DNA of 64,000 nt, from contig JAJRTE010000237.1 of NCBI GenBank assembly GCA_024278455.1, positions 2,955-66,954 on the forward strand, written 5' to 3'. This document shows positions 8,670 through 16,451 of this stretch, one piece after another. Position numbers and translations under genes: made by a program. Position 1 is the stretch's first letter. Every line of letters starts with the position of its first letter. The DNA is from Myxococcota bacterium. Lineage in GTDB: Bacteria; Myxococcota_A; UBA796; JAJRTE01. The notes under the pieces were generated by a model. That model did not search any database, had not been told where the DNA came from, and was given only the letters and a program-made list of their open reading frames with translations.

Positions 8670-9939
8670 CGGCTCGCTCAGGAATCCCCACGGGACGCCC
8701 CCCACCTCGAGTCCGCAGCGCTTCTCGCGTCGCCGCTGCCGCCGCACCGAACGTGACCACACTGCTGGCGACCACCAAGAGCACGTGGGCCGCGTGCAGA
8801 TCTCCCGGAGAAACCTCCTCGACCACCTTCGCGAGACCCGAGCCGGCATCGATGTGGCCGGAGCGGGTCAGGTGCTGGAGCCCGAACACCACGTTGACCA
8901 GCCATGGAGCCACGTTCAGACCAACGAACCACACGCGGGCACCCGAGCCCAGCGCGAGGAGCCAGCAGTAGACCGGCAGCAAGTAGTATTCCGGGTTGAT
9001 GTGGTAAAATAGGAGGTTGACCCACAGGAGCAGCGCTGCGAACGTTGCCGCCATCCTCGACGACATCTCCCGCTCCTCGAGGTGCGGGAACACCCTGCCG
9101 GCCTTGCGCAAGACCATGACCACGGCAACCGCCGCCAGCAGGGTCGATATCCACGCGGCGTGGACCGGCGGGAACCCCCCACGCACCATCAACAGTGCCC
9201 ACAGGTTGACACCGAAATCCGGCCGGGGGATGAACCCGGCCAAGGGCAGCGGCTCCCCTCGAGCCAAGGCACCCATGCAGACCATCGCGTAGACAAGCAC
9301 CGCCGGTGTCCCGGCGTGGAGCAGCCGGTGCGGCAAGCGCGGGCGGGGCAGCCCCCACACCAGCGCCAGAAGCGGGACGACGAAGAATAGCTTGGCCGCC
9401 ACCACGGCCAGCGAGCAGGCCACGAGGGCGCCCCGGTACCGCCGGACAGCCACCAGGTACAGCACCAGCATGAGCCAGCAGGTGGAGATGGCTTCGTCCT
9501 GCGCCATCACGGCGGTTGTCAACCACCCCATGGGCATGAGGATGAGCGTCAGGCCGAGCGTTCGAGGATGGTCGCGTTCCGGAAGGATCGTGCAGAACGT
9601 GAGGCACAGAAGGAACGCTGCTGCGCCCTCGTACAGTATGCCCGTCAGGCGCATGACATAGAATGCCGTTCCGAAACGGGAAAGTGGAAGGGCGACAAGA
9701 GCTTCGAGCAACGGAAGAAGAGGAGGATGCTGCCCGAACCGGGCCGTGTGGCCGAGCAGGAGTCGTAACGGATCCCGGGCCATCTCCCAGTGCCCGGCCA
9801 CGTCACTTGTGAATTCCTCGGCGCGCGTCCACCATCCGAGCGCCATGAGGAGCAGGAGTCGAGCCGCCACCAGGGCGAGACCCACACCGGCGCAAAACCT
9901 CACCTTGCCTGCTGGTACGTGTCCCGCCCCGGCGTTCAA
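8590..9939 (-). CDS. Polytopic membrane protein, probable GT-C fold glycosyltransferase (GT87-like)
   Basis: About 10 TM helices; N-terminal loop EEFTSD..., HPPLLP, QDEAI, AKLFF; TTG start overlaps the upstream TGA (TTGA). Confidence 0.6.
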   Translation of the reverse strand: MNAGAGHVPAGKVRFCAGVGLALVAARLLLLMALGWWTRAEEFTSDVAGHWEMARDPLRLLLGHTARFGQHPPLLPLLEALVALPLSRFGTAFYVMRLTGILYEGAAAFLLCLTFCTILPERDHPRTLGLTLILMPMGWLTTAVMAQDEAISTCWLMLVLYLVAVRRYRGALVACSLAVVAAKLFFVVPLLALVWGLPRPRLPHRLLHAGTPAVLVYAMVCMGALARGEPLPLAGFIPRPDFGVNLWALLMVRGGFPPVHAAWISTLLAAVAVVMVLRKAGRVFPHLEEREMSSRMAATFAALLLWVNLLFYHINPEYYLLPVYCWLLALGSGARVWFVGLNVAPWLVNVVFGLQHLTRSGHIDAGSGLAKVVEEVSPGDLHAAHVLLVVASSVVTFGAAAAATREALRTRGGGRPVGIPERAVMDRRDGSSRGSPGQGTTTSTTHHPS

Positions 9940-11678
9940 TGGGTCGGCTCGGTTTCTCCGGCGGCCACGTACACCGGAGCGATGTCAACAGGAATACCCG
10001 CGATCCTCTCGATGGTCGCCCCGATCTCGGGCGTCGCCTTGCCGTAGCCGGCAATGAGTTTCGCGGCTCGAGCATAGTCGCCCGTCGCTTCGATCATGAG
10101 CAGCTCTCGCGCCAGGGATTCCACCGCGCCCGGCATCTTTTCGACGTCCACCCGGTAGCGCCCCTCCCCTACGGGCACGATGGCCCCCTTCTCACGGTAC
10201 CAGTTCCACTGAATGGCAACACCACCTCCGTGCGCCTCGGTCAGACCGAATCGCATGCTCCGGAACATCATGCCCGCGTCCGTCACGAAGAGGTGCTCCG
10301 GTGTGAATGACCCGACCAGGCCCCGATCCATCGCGAACAGGAGGTTCCAGACGCCGAGAACATCGGCCTTGCACTCTTCGATCGTGGAGTAGAGTTCCTT
10401 GAGAAGGATCCGGCTTTCGACACGCGTGCCGTCCGGCTGAGCGATCATGCCGGGGCCGAGCCCATGAGACAACTCGTGGAACAAGATGTGGGTGAAAAAA
10501 GCCTCGAACGACAAGAACGCCTGCTGGTCCGAATCCACTACGAGCTTGGCAATGGGCAGTCCCACCTGGTAGTACTTGGCTTCCATGACGTTCTTCAGCA
10601 ACACCTTCTTGGACCCCTTCGCTTCCCGGACCCGTTCGTCATTGGGCAGGTTGAACGCAGCGGTCTGGACACCGTGGCGAGCGTCTCCGGCCGTGTAGAT
10701 TACCTGGACCACCTTGATCGGAGACTCGGTTCCCCGATCCAGGTTCTTGTGTTCGTCCGGCATTGGCAAGTTCCGTTCCATCTCCGGCAGGTAGTCGCCG
10801 AGTGTCTTCAACTCCTCGCTGGCTTCCCGATCGACGACGGTAACGAACGCCTCGAAGGCTGCCTTGTAGTTGAACAACCTGTCCTGGTATACTTCGTAGG
10901 GTCCAATCACCACCTCGATGGCGGAGTCCAGGTCCATCCATGCCAGGTCGCTCTCGTAGTAGTCGTCGGAGAGGAATGCCGCGGCCCGCTTCTCGAGATA
11001 GGTCCGGAGAGATCCGTTGCCGGCGAGCGCTGCCGCTTCCCGGAGCGCGGCGGCCGCTGCCTCGAGGTCTTCGGCATAGTAGGTGGAGTAGGGAATCGCC
11101 ATCAACCTGTCGCCGTCTCGCCGCACCACGGTAAACAACCCGCACAGACTGTCCTTGTCCCCGGGATGGACCTCGAGCCACTGTTCGAGCGCTTCCCGTG
11201 TCAAGTCGGGTGGATAGAAGCCCGAACCGAGCGGGAGGGCTCCCTGCTCGCCGAACGGGGCGACAAAAGGCTCGAAATCCCGGAGCGAGTCCCACCTTCC
11301 CTTCATGATGTCGAACAGCTCGAGCGCCCGGGCATATTCGGGCGAAGTCTCCGCCAGCGACACGAGCTTCTCACGGGTGGCGGGGTTTTCTTCCGATACC
11401 TGCCGGAGGTATATCGCATCGATGTGCCGGGCCGCCTCGATCAGCTTCTCCACGACGGCCTTGTCCTGCTCCGCCAGGAGCGACCGGTCATAGTCGATCA
11501 CGGTGTAGGGCAGCCTGTCCAGTCGTTGGGGAATGTCGGGAGCGAGAGCCAGGGGAGCTTCGTGCTCCTGGTCCGGTAAACGCTGGGTGGCTTCTGGGTT
11601 CGAGGCGACCGTGCGGCACCCGGCGGGAGCCGACAGCGACAGCGCAATGGCCAGTGCGAGATGGTGAAACGATTTCAT
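9936..11678 (-). CDS. Peptidase M49 (dipeptidyl peptidase III-like) lipoprotein
   Basis: IGPYEVYQD, FNLPNDERV, HELSHGLG, IEECKAD; lipobox-like PAG-C; GGAGG RBS. Confidence 0.85.
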   Translation of the reverse strand: MKSFHHLALAIALSLSAPAGCRTVASNPEATQRLPDQEHEAPLALAPDIPQRLDRLPYTVIDYDRSLLAEQDKAVVEKLIEAARHIDAIYLRQVSEENPATREKLVSLAETSPEYARALELFDIMKGRWDSLRDFEPFVAPFGEQGALPLGSGFYPPDLTREALEQWLEVHPGDKDSLCGLFTVVRRDGDRLMAIPYSTYYAEDLEAAAAALREAAALAGNGSLRTYLEKRAAAFLSDDYYESDLAWMDLDSAIEVVIGPYEVYQDRLFNYKAAFEAFVTVVDREASEELKTLGDYLPEMERNLPMPDEHKNLDRGTESPIKVVQVIYTAGDARHGVQTAAFNLPNDERVREAKGSKKVLLKNVMEAKYYQVGLPIAKLVVDSDQQAFLSFEAFFTHILFHELSHGLGPGMIAQPDGTRVESRILLKELYSTIEECKADVLGVWNLLFAMDRGLVGSFTPEHLFVTDAGMMFRSMRFGLTEAHGGGVAIQWNWYREKGAIVPVGEGRYRVDVEKMPGAVESLARELLMIEATGDYARAAKLIAGYGKATPEIGATIERIAGIPVDIAPVYVAAGETEPTH

Positions 11679-11911
11679 CCTTCCTCCTCGAGTCATGATG
11701 GTGGGAGATGCATCCCTGGCAAGGCGGGATGACTATAGCCCAGGCGCTCCCCGGGCGCAACGAGGGCTCGGCTTGCCGCGCCTGTTTGGAGGGCCGGCAT
11801 GCTGCCGGGTGGTCAGTACGGGGTCGAGCGAGCGTGGGAACAGAGGCCTTGTTCGCGTGTCAGCGGCAGGACGAAAGGTTTCGGGACGGCGCTGGTGCCG
11901 CTCGAGCGTTT

Positions 11912-12583
11912 CTAGTTGCAGGAATGCAGGCCGTAGGCCTCGGCAGTATCGCGCCAGGCGTCGATGGGGAACGTGCCCGCGTCGGCATCGGATTCGGGCA
12001 CCGTGTACTCACGGTTGGACACCTCGAACAGGCCCTCGGTATCGTCCTCGAAGTTCGTGCAACCGTTCCAGTCGGGGTCCTGGTCGTTCATGTAGTCCTT
12101 CTCGCCTTCGGCCCAGGCGTCGTCCGGGTTGCTCGTTGTTTTGGCGAACTTGAAGATTATACCTGCCCCGGCGGGGAGTTCCAGCGTGATGCTGTAGGTG
12201 CCGTCTCCGTTGTCGGTCATGGCCATCGCCGGGTCGTTCGGGTCCCAGCCGTTCATGTCCCCCACGATGAAGACCTGCTCGCCCTCCTTGACCTCGTTCA
12301 GGTTGGTATCAGGGTTGTTGTCCGCATCGATGTTGAGGTCTACGGTGAAGGTGACATTGACCATGACCGGTTCCGGAGTCGGGGTGGGGGGCGGAGGCTC
12401 CGGAGTCGGGGTTGCGGGAACCGCGGTCGGGGAGGCTTCAGGGGTCGGTGTTTCAACGGTCGGCGTTGGCGATGTCTCCTCCCCCTCGTCACTGGAACAG
12501 CCGGCGATCAGGGTGACGCCCAGGGCCAGGGACAGGGCCGCCAGCAAGCTCAGCCATGAATAGTTCTTCAACAAGTCTCTCAT
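11912..12583 (-). CDS. Lipoprotein with Thr/Pro linker and CBM20/CBM48-like carbohydrate-binding domain
   Basis: LIAG-C lipobox; TPTP-rich linker; VTFTVD...VFIVGDMNGWDP...MTDNGDGTYSITLEL..FKF. Confidence 0.75.
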   Translation of the reverse strand: MRDLLKNYSWLSLLAALSLALGVTLIAGCSSDEGEETSPTPTVETPTPEASPTAVPATPTPEPPPPTPTPEPVMVNVTFTVDLNIDADNNPDTNLNEVKEGEQVFIVGDMNGWDPNDPAMAMTDNGDGTYSITLELPAGAGIIFKFAKTTSNPDDAWAEGEKDYMNDQDPDWNGCTNFEDDTEGLFEVSNREYTVPESDADAGTFPIDAWRDTAEAYGLHSCN

Positions 12584-12683
12584 TACGCTCCTCCTTTGAT
12601 ACATGGGTCACAATGATACCCATCTCGACGTTCATGTAGCCCTTTTTCTACTACCCGGTGATTCGGGACCTCGTTCAATACGG

Positions 12684-12705
12684 GGCAATCATAAGCCAGA
12701 TTGCC
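12684..12705. promoter_or_regulatory. Inverted repeat (operator or hairpin) in an AT-rich intergenic gap
   Basis: GGCAATC-8nt-GATTGCC. Confidence 0.35.
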
Positions 12706-12733
12706 ATTCAGCACAATAGACTATTTCAAGAAA

Positions 12734-14284
12734 TCACTCCGGGGCGACAACAATGGCACCCTGGTCCGCACCGCCGCACAGGCCGGCGGTGGCTCGGGTC
12801 ACCAGGGGGTGGCGGAGCCATTGGTCGTAGGTGCACTGGCCGGCGAGTTCCACGAGGTCGTTTTCCTCGTCCACGACCGACACCGAGAGCGGATGCTCCT
12901 GGGCTTCGGGGATGCCGTCGCCGTTCAGGTCCGTGTCCCATGTGATCGTGCCATTGCACCCCTCGAAAGACGAATGACAGTTGTTCTTGTCCTTGTTGGT
13001 GGTCTCGTTGGTGACGTAGTCGTCCCGCCACACGATGCCATCCCCGTTGAGATCGACGATCTCCAGAATGCGCTGATTGCCGGGCCATTCCTCGGTGCTC
13101 GTCCAGTTCTGCCCATAGGAGCCATAGGTGTACTTGTACCCGATACGCAACCCCTCCGGAAAGAGAAACACGATGGTGTAGATGCCATCCTCGGGAACGA
13201 TATCGCCATGGGTCCCGTCATCGTACATCGGGATGGTGTTGGGCGTCCAGTCGCCCATCATGGCATCGAACGCCACGTCCTGGATAGGCGAATCTTCATG
13301 CGTCCCCCCGGTGAAGTAGAGGCTGTCGCCTTCGTCGCAGTTGATCCACTGACCCGAGCAGGCGTTCTCGGCCTGGATACAGGTTCCATCCTCCATGTGC
13401 GCGGTGAACACGGTCACCAGGTAGGGATGGGTCCCGCCTTCGCTGTCGGTGTAGACGTCGAGAGGCACGCCGGTCAGGATCGCCTGTTGCTGCTGGCCGG
13501 CCAGGGCGATGGCGGCTTCGTCGAACAGGGCCGGATCGGTGTCGGGGCTGCCGTCCGCGTCGAAATCCACCGCAACGCTGGCGAGAAAATCGCTCTGCAA
13601 CAGGTGTGGCCCGGTGGAAACCAGGGGAAACATCGCCGGCCCTTCCACGGTCTCGTCGCCGGCAGCCACTACGGCGGAGACCATCGAAGCAAACGCCGCG
13701 ACGTCGCTCGCCGGGTCCTCGAGTGCCTCGAGCAGGTTGTCCGCGGCAAGGGCCAGTTCATCGGTGCTGAACGTCTGGAGCATGTAGGAGTAGGGGGCGA
13801 CCGCCGGGTTGTCGATACTATCTCCCCGGAATGCCCCCAGGGCGTCGATGACCAGGGCCACGGCCGTGGAATCGGCGTCCATCTCGAGGAGCACCCCGGT
13901 ATCCAGGTCGTCCTGGGTGAGGCACGCGACGACCGCCTTGAGCACGATGTTGCCGGCGGTTGCGGTGATGCGCAGGGTCCCGCTGGTGAGTTGCGTCGCA
14001 TCTTCGGCGGTCAGCAGATAGGCGCCCGGCGTCGCTGTCGCGGCCTGGGTCACCGGAATCTCCTCGCCGTACGCGTCGTAGAGATGGAACACCGGTTCCA
14101 CCGTGAACGTGCCTGTGGCCGTGACGGTGATGGCTCCGGGCACCGACACCACTGGCGGCGCGGTCGGGGTCGGAGTCGGATCCTTGTTGAGCGCGTCCAC
14201 CAGCCCGGCTTCGAACAGACAGCCGCCGGCGCCGGTTGCGAAGCACAACGAGCCAAGTCCCATGATCAGTGCGTGGCGTCTCAT
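12734..14284 (-). CDS. Lipoprotein with choice-of-anchor-X-like Ig/CBM domain and DxDxDG motifs
   Basis: GAGG-C lipobox; PTPTPT linker; MYDDGTHGD..EDGIYT motif; DFDADG and two DLNGDG. Confidence 0.7.
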   Translation of the reverse strand: MRRHALIMGLGSLCFATGAGGCLFEAGLVDALNKDPTPTPTAPPVVSVPGAITVTATGTFTVEPVFHLYDAYGEEIPVTQAATATPGAYLLTAEDATQLTSGTLRITATAGNIVLKAVVACLTQDDLDTGVLLEMDADSTAVALVIDALGAFRGDSIDNPAVAPYSYMLQTFSTDELALAADNLLEALEDPASDVAAFASMVSAVVAAGDETVEGPAMFPLVSTGPHLLQSDFLASVAVDFDADGSPDTDPALFDEAAIALAGQQQQAILTGVPLDVYTDSEGGTHPYLVTVFTAHMEDGTCIQAENACSGQWINCDEGDSLYFTGGTHEDSPIQDVAFDAMMGDWTPNTIPMYDDGTHGDIVPEDGIYTIVFLFPEGLRIGYKYTYGSYGQNWTSTEEWPGNQRILEIVDLNGDGIVWRDDYVTNETTNKDKNNCHSSFEGCNGTITWDTDLNGDGIPEAQEHPLSVSVVDEENDLVELAGQCTYDQWLRHPLVTRATAGLCGGADQGAIVVAPE

Positions 14285-14322
14285 CGTCTTGCTCCTTCTC
14301 CCGGCTACAGGTCGCCCTCATG

Positions 14323-16335
14323 CTACCACGAGGTTTCGAAGGTGGCCTTGGTTCGAATCCGGTTCCAGCCGTGATACGCGGCGGTGTTGGTGAGGGGGTG
14401 GGGGATCAGGTCGCCGAACGTGAATTCGGGGAGTTCGCCCCAGTCGCCCCGCTCCTGGTCCTTGACCAACCACTCGGCGAGGTAGGTGAACTTCACGCCG
14501 CCGAAGTTGTATTCGAACCCCACGTAAAGCCTGTTTTTTCGGGTGAGATACTCGTAATAGCCGTTCGCCAGGCTCGCGGTCAGGGGCGAGCGGTCCTTCT
14601 CCCGCCAGTAGTTGATCTCGTCGCCGAGGAATCCGGTCAGTTCGTCTGTCAACTGGTACCCGGTCCGGACGTCGAGCTGGTAGATATCGCCGGCATAGTC
14701 ATCGTTGGCCAAGGTGACATCGCGCAGGTCGCGGTCCCGGATGAACTTGGCCTTGGTGTTCCACTCGATTCCGCGGCCCACATCGATCAAGGTGTTGAAC
14801 CACAGTGCCATGATCTGGGTTCTCCGGTCCTGGTTCTCCTGGTAGACGGCCCGGAAATCACGGCCACGATCTCCCACGTTGGCGTAGTCGTAGAAGTCGG
14901 TGTCCGTGAAGCCGTCCGGGTAGAGAAACCCCGGGTAGACGTGATCGATGTCCCTCCCCTGCATGTTCGTGTTGTAGGTCAGGTAGGTGAATTCCCCCTT
15001 CAGCTCGCTCATCCCCAGAAACTGGCTGGCCACCAGGGTGACGCCGTTCCATCCGATGCAGGATTCGAACCAGGGTTCGTCGAAATCATGGAATTCATTT
15101 GCGATGTTCAGGGTGGGCAACTGGCCGCCGGAGACGAATCCGTCGGTGAGCAGGACGTCGGCCTCGCGGCGGGCACCCAGGATGGCGTTGTAGTGTTGGC
15201 CGATGTTGAAGTATTCGGCGGTCAGGCTGAGTCCGACGCCGAACGGATCGGTCACGTCGGCCTTGAAGATCCCGGCCAGACCCCGAACCGGCAGCAGGTT
15301 CCCGTCCGCACCGGTCTCGCCCCACACCACGGGGAAGAAGCCCTGGAAGTTCTCCACGCCGTTGGTAGCATACATCGGGTTGATGAGAGACCAGGACCAG
15401 GCGCCGATCCCGTACAGCCGTACAAAATCGATGTTGGCGTTTGCCTCGAGCGTGCCGTTGGCCATTCTGAATCGGGGGGCGGTGTCCACGGCGTAGTCCG
15501 ATACGCCGTCCGGGACCAGGGTGTTGGGTGCGTCCGGGTCGTAGAGGTTGAACTCGCGGTCGATGAGATAGGACCCGATGGCGGTCACCCGGAGTTCATC
15601 GATGGGACGACTCGTCAACTTCAAGCCGTAGGCCCAGTCCTGGGTGATGAAAGGATTGTCCAAGGCCGGGTCGCCGTTGCCGAGATTCCAGCCAATGCTG
15701 CCCCACTCCTTGGACGGCGCGGTCACGACAGCCACGTACTTCACAGGTACTGCGTCGAATCCACCCCACACGAAAAAGCCTCGAGCGTTGTCCCGGTCGA
15801 TATAGCGCACCTTGCCTATGGTCCAAGCGTTGAACATGCCAAGGTCGCTCGAGCCGGCACGGATGACCTGGACCGTGCGGATCGGAGGGTCCCGCACCTC
15901 GATCCAGAAGCCTCGAAGCTTCATGTACGAAGCGTGGTTCATGCCGAGGCTCTCCCCGGACGTATCCCCCGGAAAAGGTACGGGACTCCCCGTTTCCGTC
16001 AGCTTGAGGTCGCCGTTCTCCCACCAGTCGTGCCAGTCGGCTCCCCAGCGGCTCTTGAGCCGCGCCCCGGCGGTGACGTGGTCGCTGACTCGAGCCCGGA
16101 TTCCCAACTCGAACTCGCTGGCCTGACCGTTCGACCCGGTGAAGTTGTCCTTCCAGAATGGGTGGCCCAGCCACTGGGAACCCTGGCTGTCATCGTTGGC
16201 ATACAGGATCTTGGTATAGATCTTGCCATCCAACTCGAAATTGGCTATGTCCGCGTTCACGTTCCGTGGGCAGCAAAGAACAAGGACCAAGAGCAAGGCG
16301 CCGAACGGTCGCCACGTCCAGGGGTGATGTTTCAT
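14323..16335 (-). CDS. Putative outer-membrane beta-barrel (porin-like) protein
   Basis: Signal peptide (VNA-D); many alternating amphipathic strands rich in W/Y/F; C-terminal RTKATFETSW. Confidence 0.65.
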   Translation of the reverse strand: MKHHPWTWRPFGALLLVLVLCCPRNVNADIANFELDGKIYTKILYANDDSQGSQWLGHPFWKDNFTGSNGQASEFELGIRARVSDHVTAGARLKSRWGADWHDWWENGDLKLTETGSPVPFPGDTSGESLGMNHASYMKLRGFWIEVRDPPIRTVQVIRAGSSDLGMFNAWTIGKVRYIDRDNARGFFVWGGFDAVPVKYVAVVTAPSKEWGSIGWNLGNGDPALDNPFITQDWAYGLKLTSRPIDELRVTAIGSYLIDREFNLYDPDAPNTLVPDGVSDYAVDTAPRFRMANGTLEANANIDFVRLYGIGAWSWSLINPMYATNGVENFQGFFPVVWGETGADGNLLPVRGLAGIFKADVTDPFGVGLSLTAEYFNIGQHYNAILGARREADVLLTDGFVSGGQLPTLNIANEFHDFDEPWFESCIGWNGVTLVASQFLGMSELKGEFTYLTYNTNMQGRDIDHVYPGFLYPDGFTDTDFYDYANVGDRGRDFRAVYQENQDRRTQIMALWFNTLIDVGRGIEWNTKAKFIRDRDLRDVTLANDDYAGDIYQLDVRTGYQLTDELTGFLGDEINYWREKDRSPLTASLANGYYEYLTRKNRLYVGFEYNFGGVKFTYLAEWLVKDQERGDWGELPEFTFGDLIPHPLTNTAAYHGWNRIRTKATFETSW

Positions 16336-16422
16336 TTTGAGTCCCCAATCCCCATGGCTGTTGGGGTCCGGAAGCGTACGTCCCGGGAACCGGTAGCAGG
16401 CAACGCCTTCTGTCGGGCTACA

Positions 16423-16451
16423 ACGCTAGGGTATTCAACGGGTTTTGTCAA
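16423..16451 (-). promoter_or_regulatory. sigma70-type promoter for the barrel/lipoprotein genes
   Basis: Minus strand TTGACA (16451-16446), 17 nt, TAGCGT (16428-16423). Confidence 0.65.

Follow-up and report, generated by a model that had tools for sequence, protein, structure and literature searches.

A three-gene Myxococcota cassette with a plug-less outer-membrane barrel and CBM20-type lipoproteins as a candidate TonB-independent α-glucan capture module

The A-B-C cassette and its predicted products

The DNA analysed here, referred to as the window, is a stretch of 64,000 nucleotides of contig JAJRTE010000237.1 from a Myxococcota bacterium (assembly GCA_024278455.1). It contains three co-directional open reading frames (ORFs) on the minus strand between positions 11912 and 16335, designated A, B and C, which are predicted to encode an outer-membrane (OM) β-barrel and two lipoproteins. 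An original prediction made from the sequence had proposed such a trio, an OM barrel plus two linker-tethered lipoproteins with no TonB receptor or hydrolase, and all three ORFs were found where it had placed them. Neither a hydrolase nor a TonB-dependent receptor was detected within the module by the ORF list and Pfam.

The signal peptide of A ends in ...NVNA|DIANFE, so that the mature chain begins at D29. Since strand 1 begins at residue 33, only 4-5 residues past the cleavage site, the N-terminus leaves no space for a plug or a TonB box. No match to Plug (PF07715), TonB_dep_Rec or any other Pfam or NCBIfam family was obtained for A, and a sequence search of the PDB gave no match. The AlphaFold2 model, calculated with 40 homologues, has a mean predicted local distance difference test score (pLDDT) of 75.9 and a predicted template-modelling score (pTM) of 0.77. 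In this model, DSSP assigns 22 strands, joined by periplasmic turns of 2-7 residues and by long extracellular loops. The general features of OM barrels, that is, a signal peptide, an even number of strands, short periplasmic turns and a C-terminal aromatic residue (the last residue is W), are all present in the modelled protein. Foldseek against the PDB retrieved OM barrels exclusively, with 337 matches at E ≤ 0.001 that include MOMP, SlpA, OmpM, TonB-dependent transporters (TBDTs), maltoporin, AlgE, FimD and MtrB. Since all template-modelling scores (TM-scores) were 0.39-0.40 or lower, the highest being that of MtrB, A is a barrel without a close structural relative. When Pfam was run on 40 barrel homologues, weak matches to Porin_4, DUF2490 and OmpA_membrane appeared in a few members only. 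The computed evidence establishes A as a plug-less OM barrel of a new family, modelled with 22 strands, in agreement with the earlier expectation that the 670-aa protein would model as a barrel with neither plug nor TonB box.

Conservation in A is concentrated in the extracellular loops. Loop L3 is the most conserved, with a mean column identity of 0.89 and a length of 20 residues in 40/40 sequences, followed by L7 (0.83, with low AlphaFold2 confidence over part of it), L8 (0.77) and L1 (0.76), compared with 0.58 for the strands. This pattern is unusual and opposite to that of general porins. Together, L1, L3, L7 and L8 contain 22 aromatic and 24 acidic residues, and loop lengths are mostly near-constant across the family. 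The conserved loops L3, L7 and L8 may line or fill the barrel lumen. At the other extreme, no part of the protein is less conserved than loop L11 (0.18).

In lipoprotein B, Cys22 is invariant in 39/39 homologues (consensus G-C-G-L-E) and is followed by the linker NKDPTPTPTAPP, with a non-canonical lipobox, AGG|C. The AlphaFold2 model of B (pLDDT 80.6, pTM 0.79) consists of an Ig-like domain, a helical domain and a β-sandwich. The DDGTHGD..DGIYT domain noted in the original prediction was recovered: B contains MYDDGTHGDIVPEDGIYT, which matches NCBIfam choice_anch_X (NF041940) with an E-value of 1.4e-8. The three DxDxDG-type loops announced with it are likewise there when read from the sequence, as DFDADG and two DLNGDG. 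No match to Pfam CBM_20 (PF00686) was found in B, the choice_anch_X match over a 27-residue motif being the only one, and the B-family profile gave no match in a sequence search of the PDB. By Foldseek, the sandwich matches the CBM20 domains of STBD1 (8x8k, with maltotetraose; TMt 0.66) and GDE5 (2z0b; TMt 0.69), as well as β-amylase, the CGTase E domain and CBM41. Alignment of the B-family profile with the CBM20 module of C by hhalign gave a probability of 95.5% and an E-value of 1.6e-8. The alignment of B with the glucoamylase domain is weaker (46%), with W346, Y368 and K384 paired with W543, W563 and K578. On the modelled fold and the profile alignment, computation identifies in B a CBM20-type module homologous to that of C. 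A GH57 (glycoside hydrolase family 57) enzyme of one related locus, L003, also carries the choice-of-anchor-X motif of B, at its C-terminus.

Lipoprotein C has the lipobox LIAG|C, followed by a linker of about 45 residues, first acidic and then Pro/Thr-rich, and by the segment VFIVGDMNGW...DNGDGTYS. Pfam CBM_20 matches C with 27.0 bits against a gathering cut-off of 23.3, and X25, CBM26 and AMPK-CBM match below threshold. Among PDB sequences, C matches best the CBM20 domain of Aspergillus niger glucoamylase (1ac0), to which W120, Y133, a Lys, W164 and N197 of C align at W543, W563, K578, W590 and N595, with NREYTV paired with NREYTV. The two Trp, the Lys and the Asn correspond to what we take to be the site-1 binding residues of the glucoamylase starch-binding domain. 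These sequence alignments assign to C a CBM20-type starch-binding module with canonical site-1 residues. Residue numbers of C follow the 230-aa ORF; the perfect AGGAGG found 6 nt upstream of ATG 12583 indicates that the product is probably 223 aa long, not 230, and the protein database also gives it as 223 aa. The earlier description of C as a lipoprotein with a TP linker and a CBM20/48-like domain was accurate except for its length. Only 7 homologues of C were found, all within the same small clade, and the C-family protein of locus L005 shows a weak match to SusF_SusE (E 0.012). The sequence after the lipid-bearing Cys, C-S-S-D-E, resembles the Bacteroides export signal CS(D/E)2, as described for SusG (PMC6222051).

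Coordinates of the cassette, of selected parts of its products and of adjoining features in the window
Feature	Position	Strand	Description
Gene A	14323-16335	minus	Predicted 670-aa OM β-barrel, unannotated family; signal peptide residues 1-28; C-terminal W
Gene B	12734-14284	minus	516-aa predicted lipoprotein, Cys22
Gene C	11912-12583 (ORF to 12604)	minus	223-aa predicted lipoprotein, CBM20 domain
Domains of B			Modelled Ig-like β domain 52-134; helical domain 137-272; CBM20-like sandwich 277-480 with three DxDxDG loops
CBM20-like domain of B	12845-13456	minus	Residues 277-480; holds the choice-of-anchor-X motif PMYDDGTHGDIVPEDGIYT
Loop L3 of A	15787-15846	minus	Residues 164-183, DLGMFNAWTIGKVRYIDRDN; most conserved segment of the family
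Loop L7 of A	15052-15201	minus	Residues 379-428, ...GARREADVLLTDGF...PTLNIANEFHDFDEPWFESCIG; conserved, aromatic, acidic
Loop L8 of A	14827-14973	minus	Residues 455-503; 9 aromatic and 10 acidic residues, conserved
Loop L11 of A	14326-14442		Residues 632-654
Putative sigma-70-type promoter	16423-16451	minus	TTGACA 16451-16446, 17-nt spacer, TAGCGT 16428-16423
B-C spacer	12584-12733		150 nt, relatively AT-rich
M49 (dipeptidyl-peptidase III-like) zinc peptidase	9936-11696	minus	586 aa, directly downstream of the cassette

Genes A and B are separated by 38 nt, and the ribosome-binding site of B is GGAGAAGGAG. Upstream of A, the promoter that had been called a good sigma-70 one is in part as described. 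Its -35 element TTGACA is perfect and the spacer is 17 nt, while the -10 element TAGCGT, read from the sequence, is weak, with 3/6 consensus matches, and a consensus promoter scan did not include the block among its calls. It was retained as a plausible high-GC sigma-70-type promoter because it is conserved, as TTGACA-17-TACGGT, in the same-genus locus L009, surrounded by upstream DNA that has otherwise diverged. The spacer between B and C contains TTGTGC-17-TATGAT, where the consensus scan made no call; it might hold a weak promoter of its own for C.

The cassette is flanked downstream by the M49-like peptidase, with a lipoprotein-type N-terminus (LSLSAPAGC) and a HELSH motif, and upstream, on the opposite strand, by genes for a 437-aa protein and a HEAT-repeat protein. 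These three genes were considered as parts of the module and rejected, as they show no synteny with it even in the same-genus relative. A, B and C are regarded as a cassette because the flanking genes adjoin them in no relative examined, and the trio is the sole synteny common to the window and its same-genus and same-order relatives.

The barrel family and its gene neighbourhoods

More than 568 homologues of A were found, all labelled hypothetical and all from Myxococcota-type metagenome-assembled genomes (MAGs). An exhaustive profile search with A gave 226 clusters at 50% identity (E ≤ 0.001) among 1.84 billion representatives. The family is present in 64 of 401 sampled Myxococcota genomes (about 16%), usually as a single copy, and in the window's own class in 3 of 182, namely this genome, its congener and one genome of the same order. 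Carriers come from soil, sediment, groundwater and freshwater. Full-text literature searches returned no description of the family. Locus statistics were obtained from 10-kb neighbourhoods of 80 species-representative loci (the 80 best, L009-L088), among which there is no cultured carrier. Some of the records (L009, L070, L073, L078, L080, L082, L038) are labelled as Gammaproteobacteria, Enterobacteriaceae, Thermohalobaculum or Bdellovibrio MAGs, and some of these non-Myxococcota labels are probably wrong.

A B homologue follows the barrel in 58/80 loci, and its start lies within 63 nt of the barrel stop in 57/57 loci with a measurable gap. By computation, A and B form a fixed gene pair across Myxococcota. 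α-Glucan hydrolases (GH13, GH57, pullulanase) and/or genes of a MalK-type ATP-binding cassette (ABC) importer lie within 10 kb in 33/80 loci, against a chance expectation of about 2%, calculated for about 6 GH13 loci in the 7-Mb host genome and a random stretch of 20 kb. The linked enzymes include lipoprotein GH57 enzymes and pullulanases with CBM48 and PUD domains. The linked ABC systems can be recognised as importers by their periplasmic solute-binding protein (SBP) and by a MalK-type ATPase that ends in a TOBE/OB_MalK tail. Three representative loci have the order Glucodextran_C protein - barrel - B homologue - another lipoprotein; GH13 flanks the module in all three and GH57 in two, and in L001/L002 an SBP-MalK-permease set also lies downstream. 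In the tree of the barrel, hydrolase or importer genes accompany members of several deep clades, among them L011 and L075, which are sisters of the clade to which the window belongs (Shimodaira-Hasegawa-like approximate likelihood-ratio support 95). With few exceptions, the accessory proteins of these loci are lipoproteins. No glycosyltransferase or Wza/Wzc-type gene was seen in the loci, and neither the module nor the related loci examined encode a SusC- or SusD-like protein. By computation, the barrel family sits in loci of α-glucan hydrolases and MalEFGK-type importers, the context for which the original prediction had proposed to check homologous barrels, and all the longer loci of a remote subfamily agree with this.

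This remote subfamily (L089-L134, metagenome contigs) is 32% identical to A and retains the L3 and L7 motifs. Twenty of its metagenomic loci span 6 kb or more, and the majority have the order GH13 - MalK - SBP - permease - permease - Glucodextran_C - barrel - (Glucodextran_C), without a B-type lipoprotein. These operons constitute independent support for the barrel's part in maltodextrin import.

The Glucodextran_C (PF09985) protein, of 275-290 aa, is encoded immediately upstream of the barrel in L001, L003, L008 and 70 of the 80 loci, with a gap of at most 50 nt in 51/62 measurable cases. In some genomes (P0017, P0089, about 950 aa), the domain is fused through a Pro/Ala linker to the N-terminus of the barrel, its periplasmic end, and further copies are found downstream of the barrel or on GH13 enzymes. 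It may act as a periplasmic tether, a gate or a glucan binder. A derived clade of 17 barrels, which includes L047, L054, L059, L064, L066, L073, L074, L080, L082, L083 and L085, has the context FHA - HSP70 - DnaJ - Glucodextran_C - barrel - T4 gp19-like tail-tube - amidohydrolase - TPR/PEGA - Ser/Thr kinase.

The order barrel - B - small CBM20 lipoprotein occurs only in the window, in L009 (84% identity), in L010 (60%) and in the metagenomic twins L005-L007. In the loci of this clade, a Glucodextran_C gene is missing and no enzyme genes adjoin the module. PF09985 has no match anywhere in the host genome, which is 94% complete, and the idea that Glucodextran_C is an obligatory plug or gate is untenable for the window's clade. 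Loop lengths of the clade's barrels match those of the family except for slightly shorter L7 and L8 and a longer L11, which has 16-30 residues in the Glucodextran_C-less clade versus 3-10 in the rest of the family.

The original inference that the hydrolases and the ABC transporter lie elsewhere proved correct, since GH13 and Mal importer genes are on other contigs of the host genome. Contig C90 encodes a GH13 lipoprotein with a similar linker and C15 a secreted GH13-PKD protein, further GH13 genes are on C285, C124 and C66, and a MalK-SBP-permease operon is on C74. LamB (PF02264) had no match in the whole host genome, with a positive control in E. coli. Large lipoproteins with a MopE copper-binding motif and beta-helix/PMP repeats were observed at C90:59622-63035, adjoining the GH13 lipoprotein, and at L005:8351-11736, about 4 kb from A-B-C in that 85%-identical relative; this proximity may be a coincidence.

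Proposed mechanism and rival explanations

From sequence and models, we consider it rather probable that A, B and C form a TonB-independent, Sus-like module for α-glucan capture with a maltodextrin channel. The module would capture α-glucan (starch, glycogen, maltodextrin) and take up its fragments, being self-contained at the outer membrane. C, on its linker of about 45 residues, would catch polymer away from the membrane, and B, at or on the mouth of the barrel, would concentrate chains or oligosaccharides in a SusD/E-like role. The aromatic and acidic loops L3, L7 and L8 would fold into the wide lumen to give a specific, passive, TonB-independent path, comparable to the greasy slide of maltoporin. 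Fragments could be produced by the lipoprotein or secreted GH13 enzymes encoded on C90 and C15, and the MalK-SBP-permease importer of C74 would then take them from the periplasm. The passage of sugar through the barrel, the outward-facing lipoproteins and the binding of α-glucan are all inferred. More tentatively, and with somewhat less than even confidence, the barrel and B may represent an unrecognised class of TonB-independent OM glycan transporter, of TBDT size, plug-less, with a loop-shaped lumen and a lipoprotein of CBM20 fold at its mouth.

Several observations weigh against this proposal. The derived 17-member clade has neither B nor sugar genes, so the family is not tied to α-glucan everywhere. 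Parts of L7 and L8, two of the loops that would shape the lumen, have a pLDDT below 50 in the AlphaFold2 model. Lipoproteins sorted by the Lol system face the periplasm by default. Of the lipoproteins in the loci, only about 15-45% carry the acidic, export-like motif that C has after its lipid-bearing Cys, which makes the motif no more than a weak lead on surface exposure. Finally, since 70/80 loci have Glucodextran_C and the host genome has none, the window's clade may work differently.

Among the alternatives, A could be mainly a docking or export hub that carries B to the surface and holds it there, like MtrB-MtrC or Slam, with Glucodextran_C proteins and lipoprotein amylases as cargo in other lineages and oligosaccharides crossing the outer membrane elsewhere. 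The prevalence of lipoproteins among the accessory proteins, the obligate adjacency of A and B and the position of MtrB at the top of the Foldseek TM-scores fit this idea, and we know of no route of surface-lipoprotein export in Myxococcota. However, the remote subfamily does without B and stands directly after MalK-SBP-permease genes in one operon, a position more readily explained by a transport step than by an anchor. Subfamilies with and without B moreover have the most conserved loops in common, and the host genome offers no LamB-type alternative. The two roles can also coexist, as SusC both binds SusD and transports. For these reasons, a mainly docking function is considered unlikely. 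Less likely still is that A is a general structural or general-diffusion OM protein whose proximity to sugar genes reflects operon history, possibly a wall tether acting through an 'SLH-like' Glucodextran_C partner, as in OmpM or SlpA. Both of these proteins are among the Foldseek matches, and the fusion of Glucodextran_C to the periplasmic N-terminus of some barrels, the usual single copy per genome and the 17-member clade, which stands among FHA, HSP70, DnaJ and kinase genes without B or glycoside hydrolases, would all be in keeping with such a function. On the other hand, the patchy distribution, in only 16% of Myxococcota genomes and 3/182 in the window's class, makes a core envelope protein improbable. 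Extracellular loops conserved above the strands are not what general porins show, the host genome lacks any Glucodextran_C, and the hydrolase and importer context recurs over deep branches.

The reverse direction of transport was also considered, in which the module would export or anchor a self-made α-glucan, A being an AlgE-like pore and B and C retaining the polymer. AlgE does appear among the Foldseek matches, GH13 includes glucan-forming enzymes, and lipoproteins bearing carbohydrate-binding modules could hold a glucan coat. Nevertheless, this reading was rejected as very improbable, since the linked ABC systems are SBP-dependent importers of MalK type and the linked lipoprotein GH57 enzymes and pullulanases are degradative; glycosyltransferase and Wza/Wzc-type genes were likewise not seen in the loci.

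If capture and uptake of α-glucan is the function of the module, Myxococcota would have arrived independently of Bacteroidota, and without TonB energy, at a Sus-like strategy of binding at the surface and importing oligosaccharides. The window's clade, which lacks Glucodextran_C, would then show the barrel and B to be the minimal working core. The family is a 'hypothetical protein' in every source and yet is present in about one sixth of the sampled Myxococcota genomes, and it concerns the way in which these abundant predators and degraders use storage glucans, bacterial glycogen among them, as food. The analysis also supplies names for three orphan protein families.

Comparison with known systems

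A large barrel encoded with a lipoprotein partner is also found in MtrB-MtrC of Shewanella. MtrB, unlike A, is a 26-strand barrel that forms a sheath around a periplasmic cytochrome and serves electron transfer, and there is no sequence relationship between the two. Compared with known CBM20 domains (1ac0, 8x8k, CGTase E), C keeps the site-1 residues, and B has the fold in its model and the aligned W, Y and K. In contrast to those domains, the modules of B and C are carried by lipoproteins without a catalytic domain, and the copy in B is too divergent for Pfam, has the additional DxDxDG loops and is one of three domains of its protein.

The closest parallel in organisation is the SusC/D/E/F/G system of Bacteroides thetaiotaomicron and the polysaccharide utilization loci of Bacteroidota, in which the gene for a 22-strand barrel also lies beside those for starch-binding lipoproteins; as in Sus, the loci of relatives hold lipoprotein amylases and pullulanases. 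The differences are substantial. A lacks both plug and TonB box and is unrelated to SusC in sequence. B is composed of Ig, helical and CBM20-like domains, whereas SusD is TPR-like, and no adjacent susC/susD-like pair is found. For passage across the inner membrane, relatives have a MalEFGK-type ABC importer, and the phylum is Myxococcota. Membership of A in the TBDT/SusC family was rejected on the absence of plug, TonB box and profile match; the modelled strand number of 22 does agree with that family. The same applies to Caulobacter MalA and other TBDTs: A resembles them in its 22-strand size and in the proposed uptake of oligosaccharides too large for general porins, but it lacks the plug and TonB box that define them. 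The description of the module as a porin-based Sus analogue is supported by the computed checks, although 'porin' is a loose term for a new family modelled with 22 strands, which is not a classical porin of 16-18 strands.

With LamB and MalE-MalFGK2 of E. coli, the module would share a TonB-independent maltodextrin channel, here predicted, that feeds an SBP-dependent ABC importer. The barrel of the remote subfamily lies in one operon with MalK, SBP and permeases, and aromatic-rich inward loops are proposed as the specificity element, as in LamB. However, LamB is a trimeric porin of 18 strands (PF02264) without dedicated lipoprotein partners, and membership of A in its family was rejected, since no Pfam match and no sequence similarity were found and the modelled strand number is 22 versus 18. 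A 2026 review of bacterial glycoside transporters describes two OM routes for maltodextrin, through passive LamB-type porins and through TonB-driven receptors of the SusC/MalA type (PMC13543919). If the proposed function holds, a large plug-less barrel together with starch-binding lipoproteins would be a third route.

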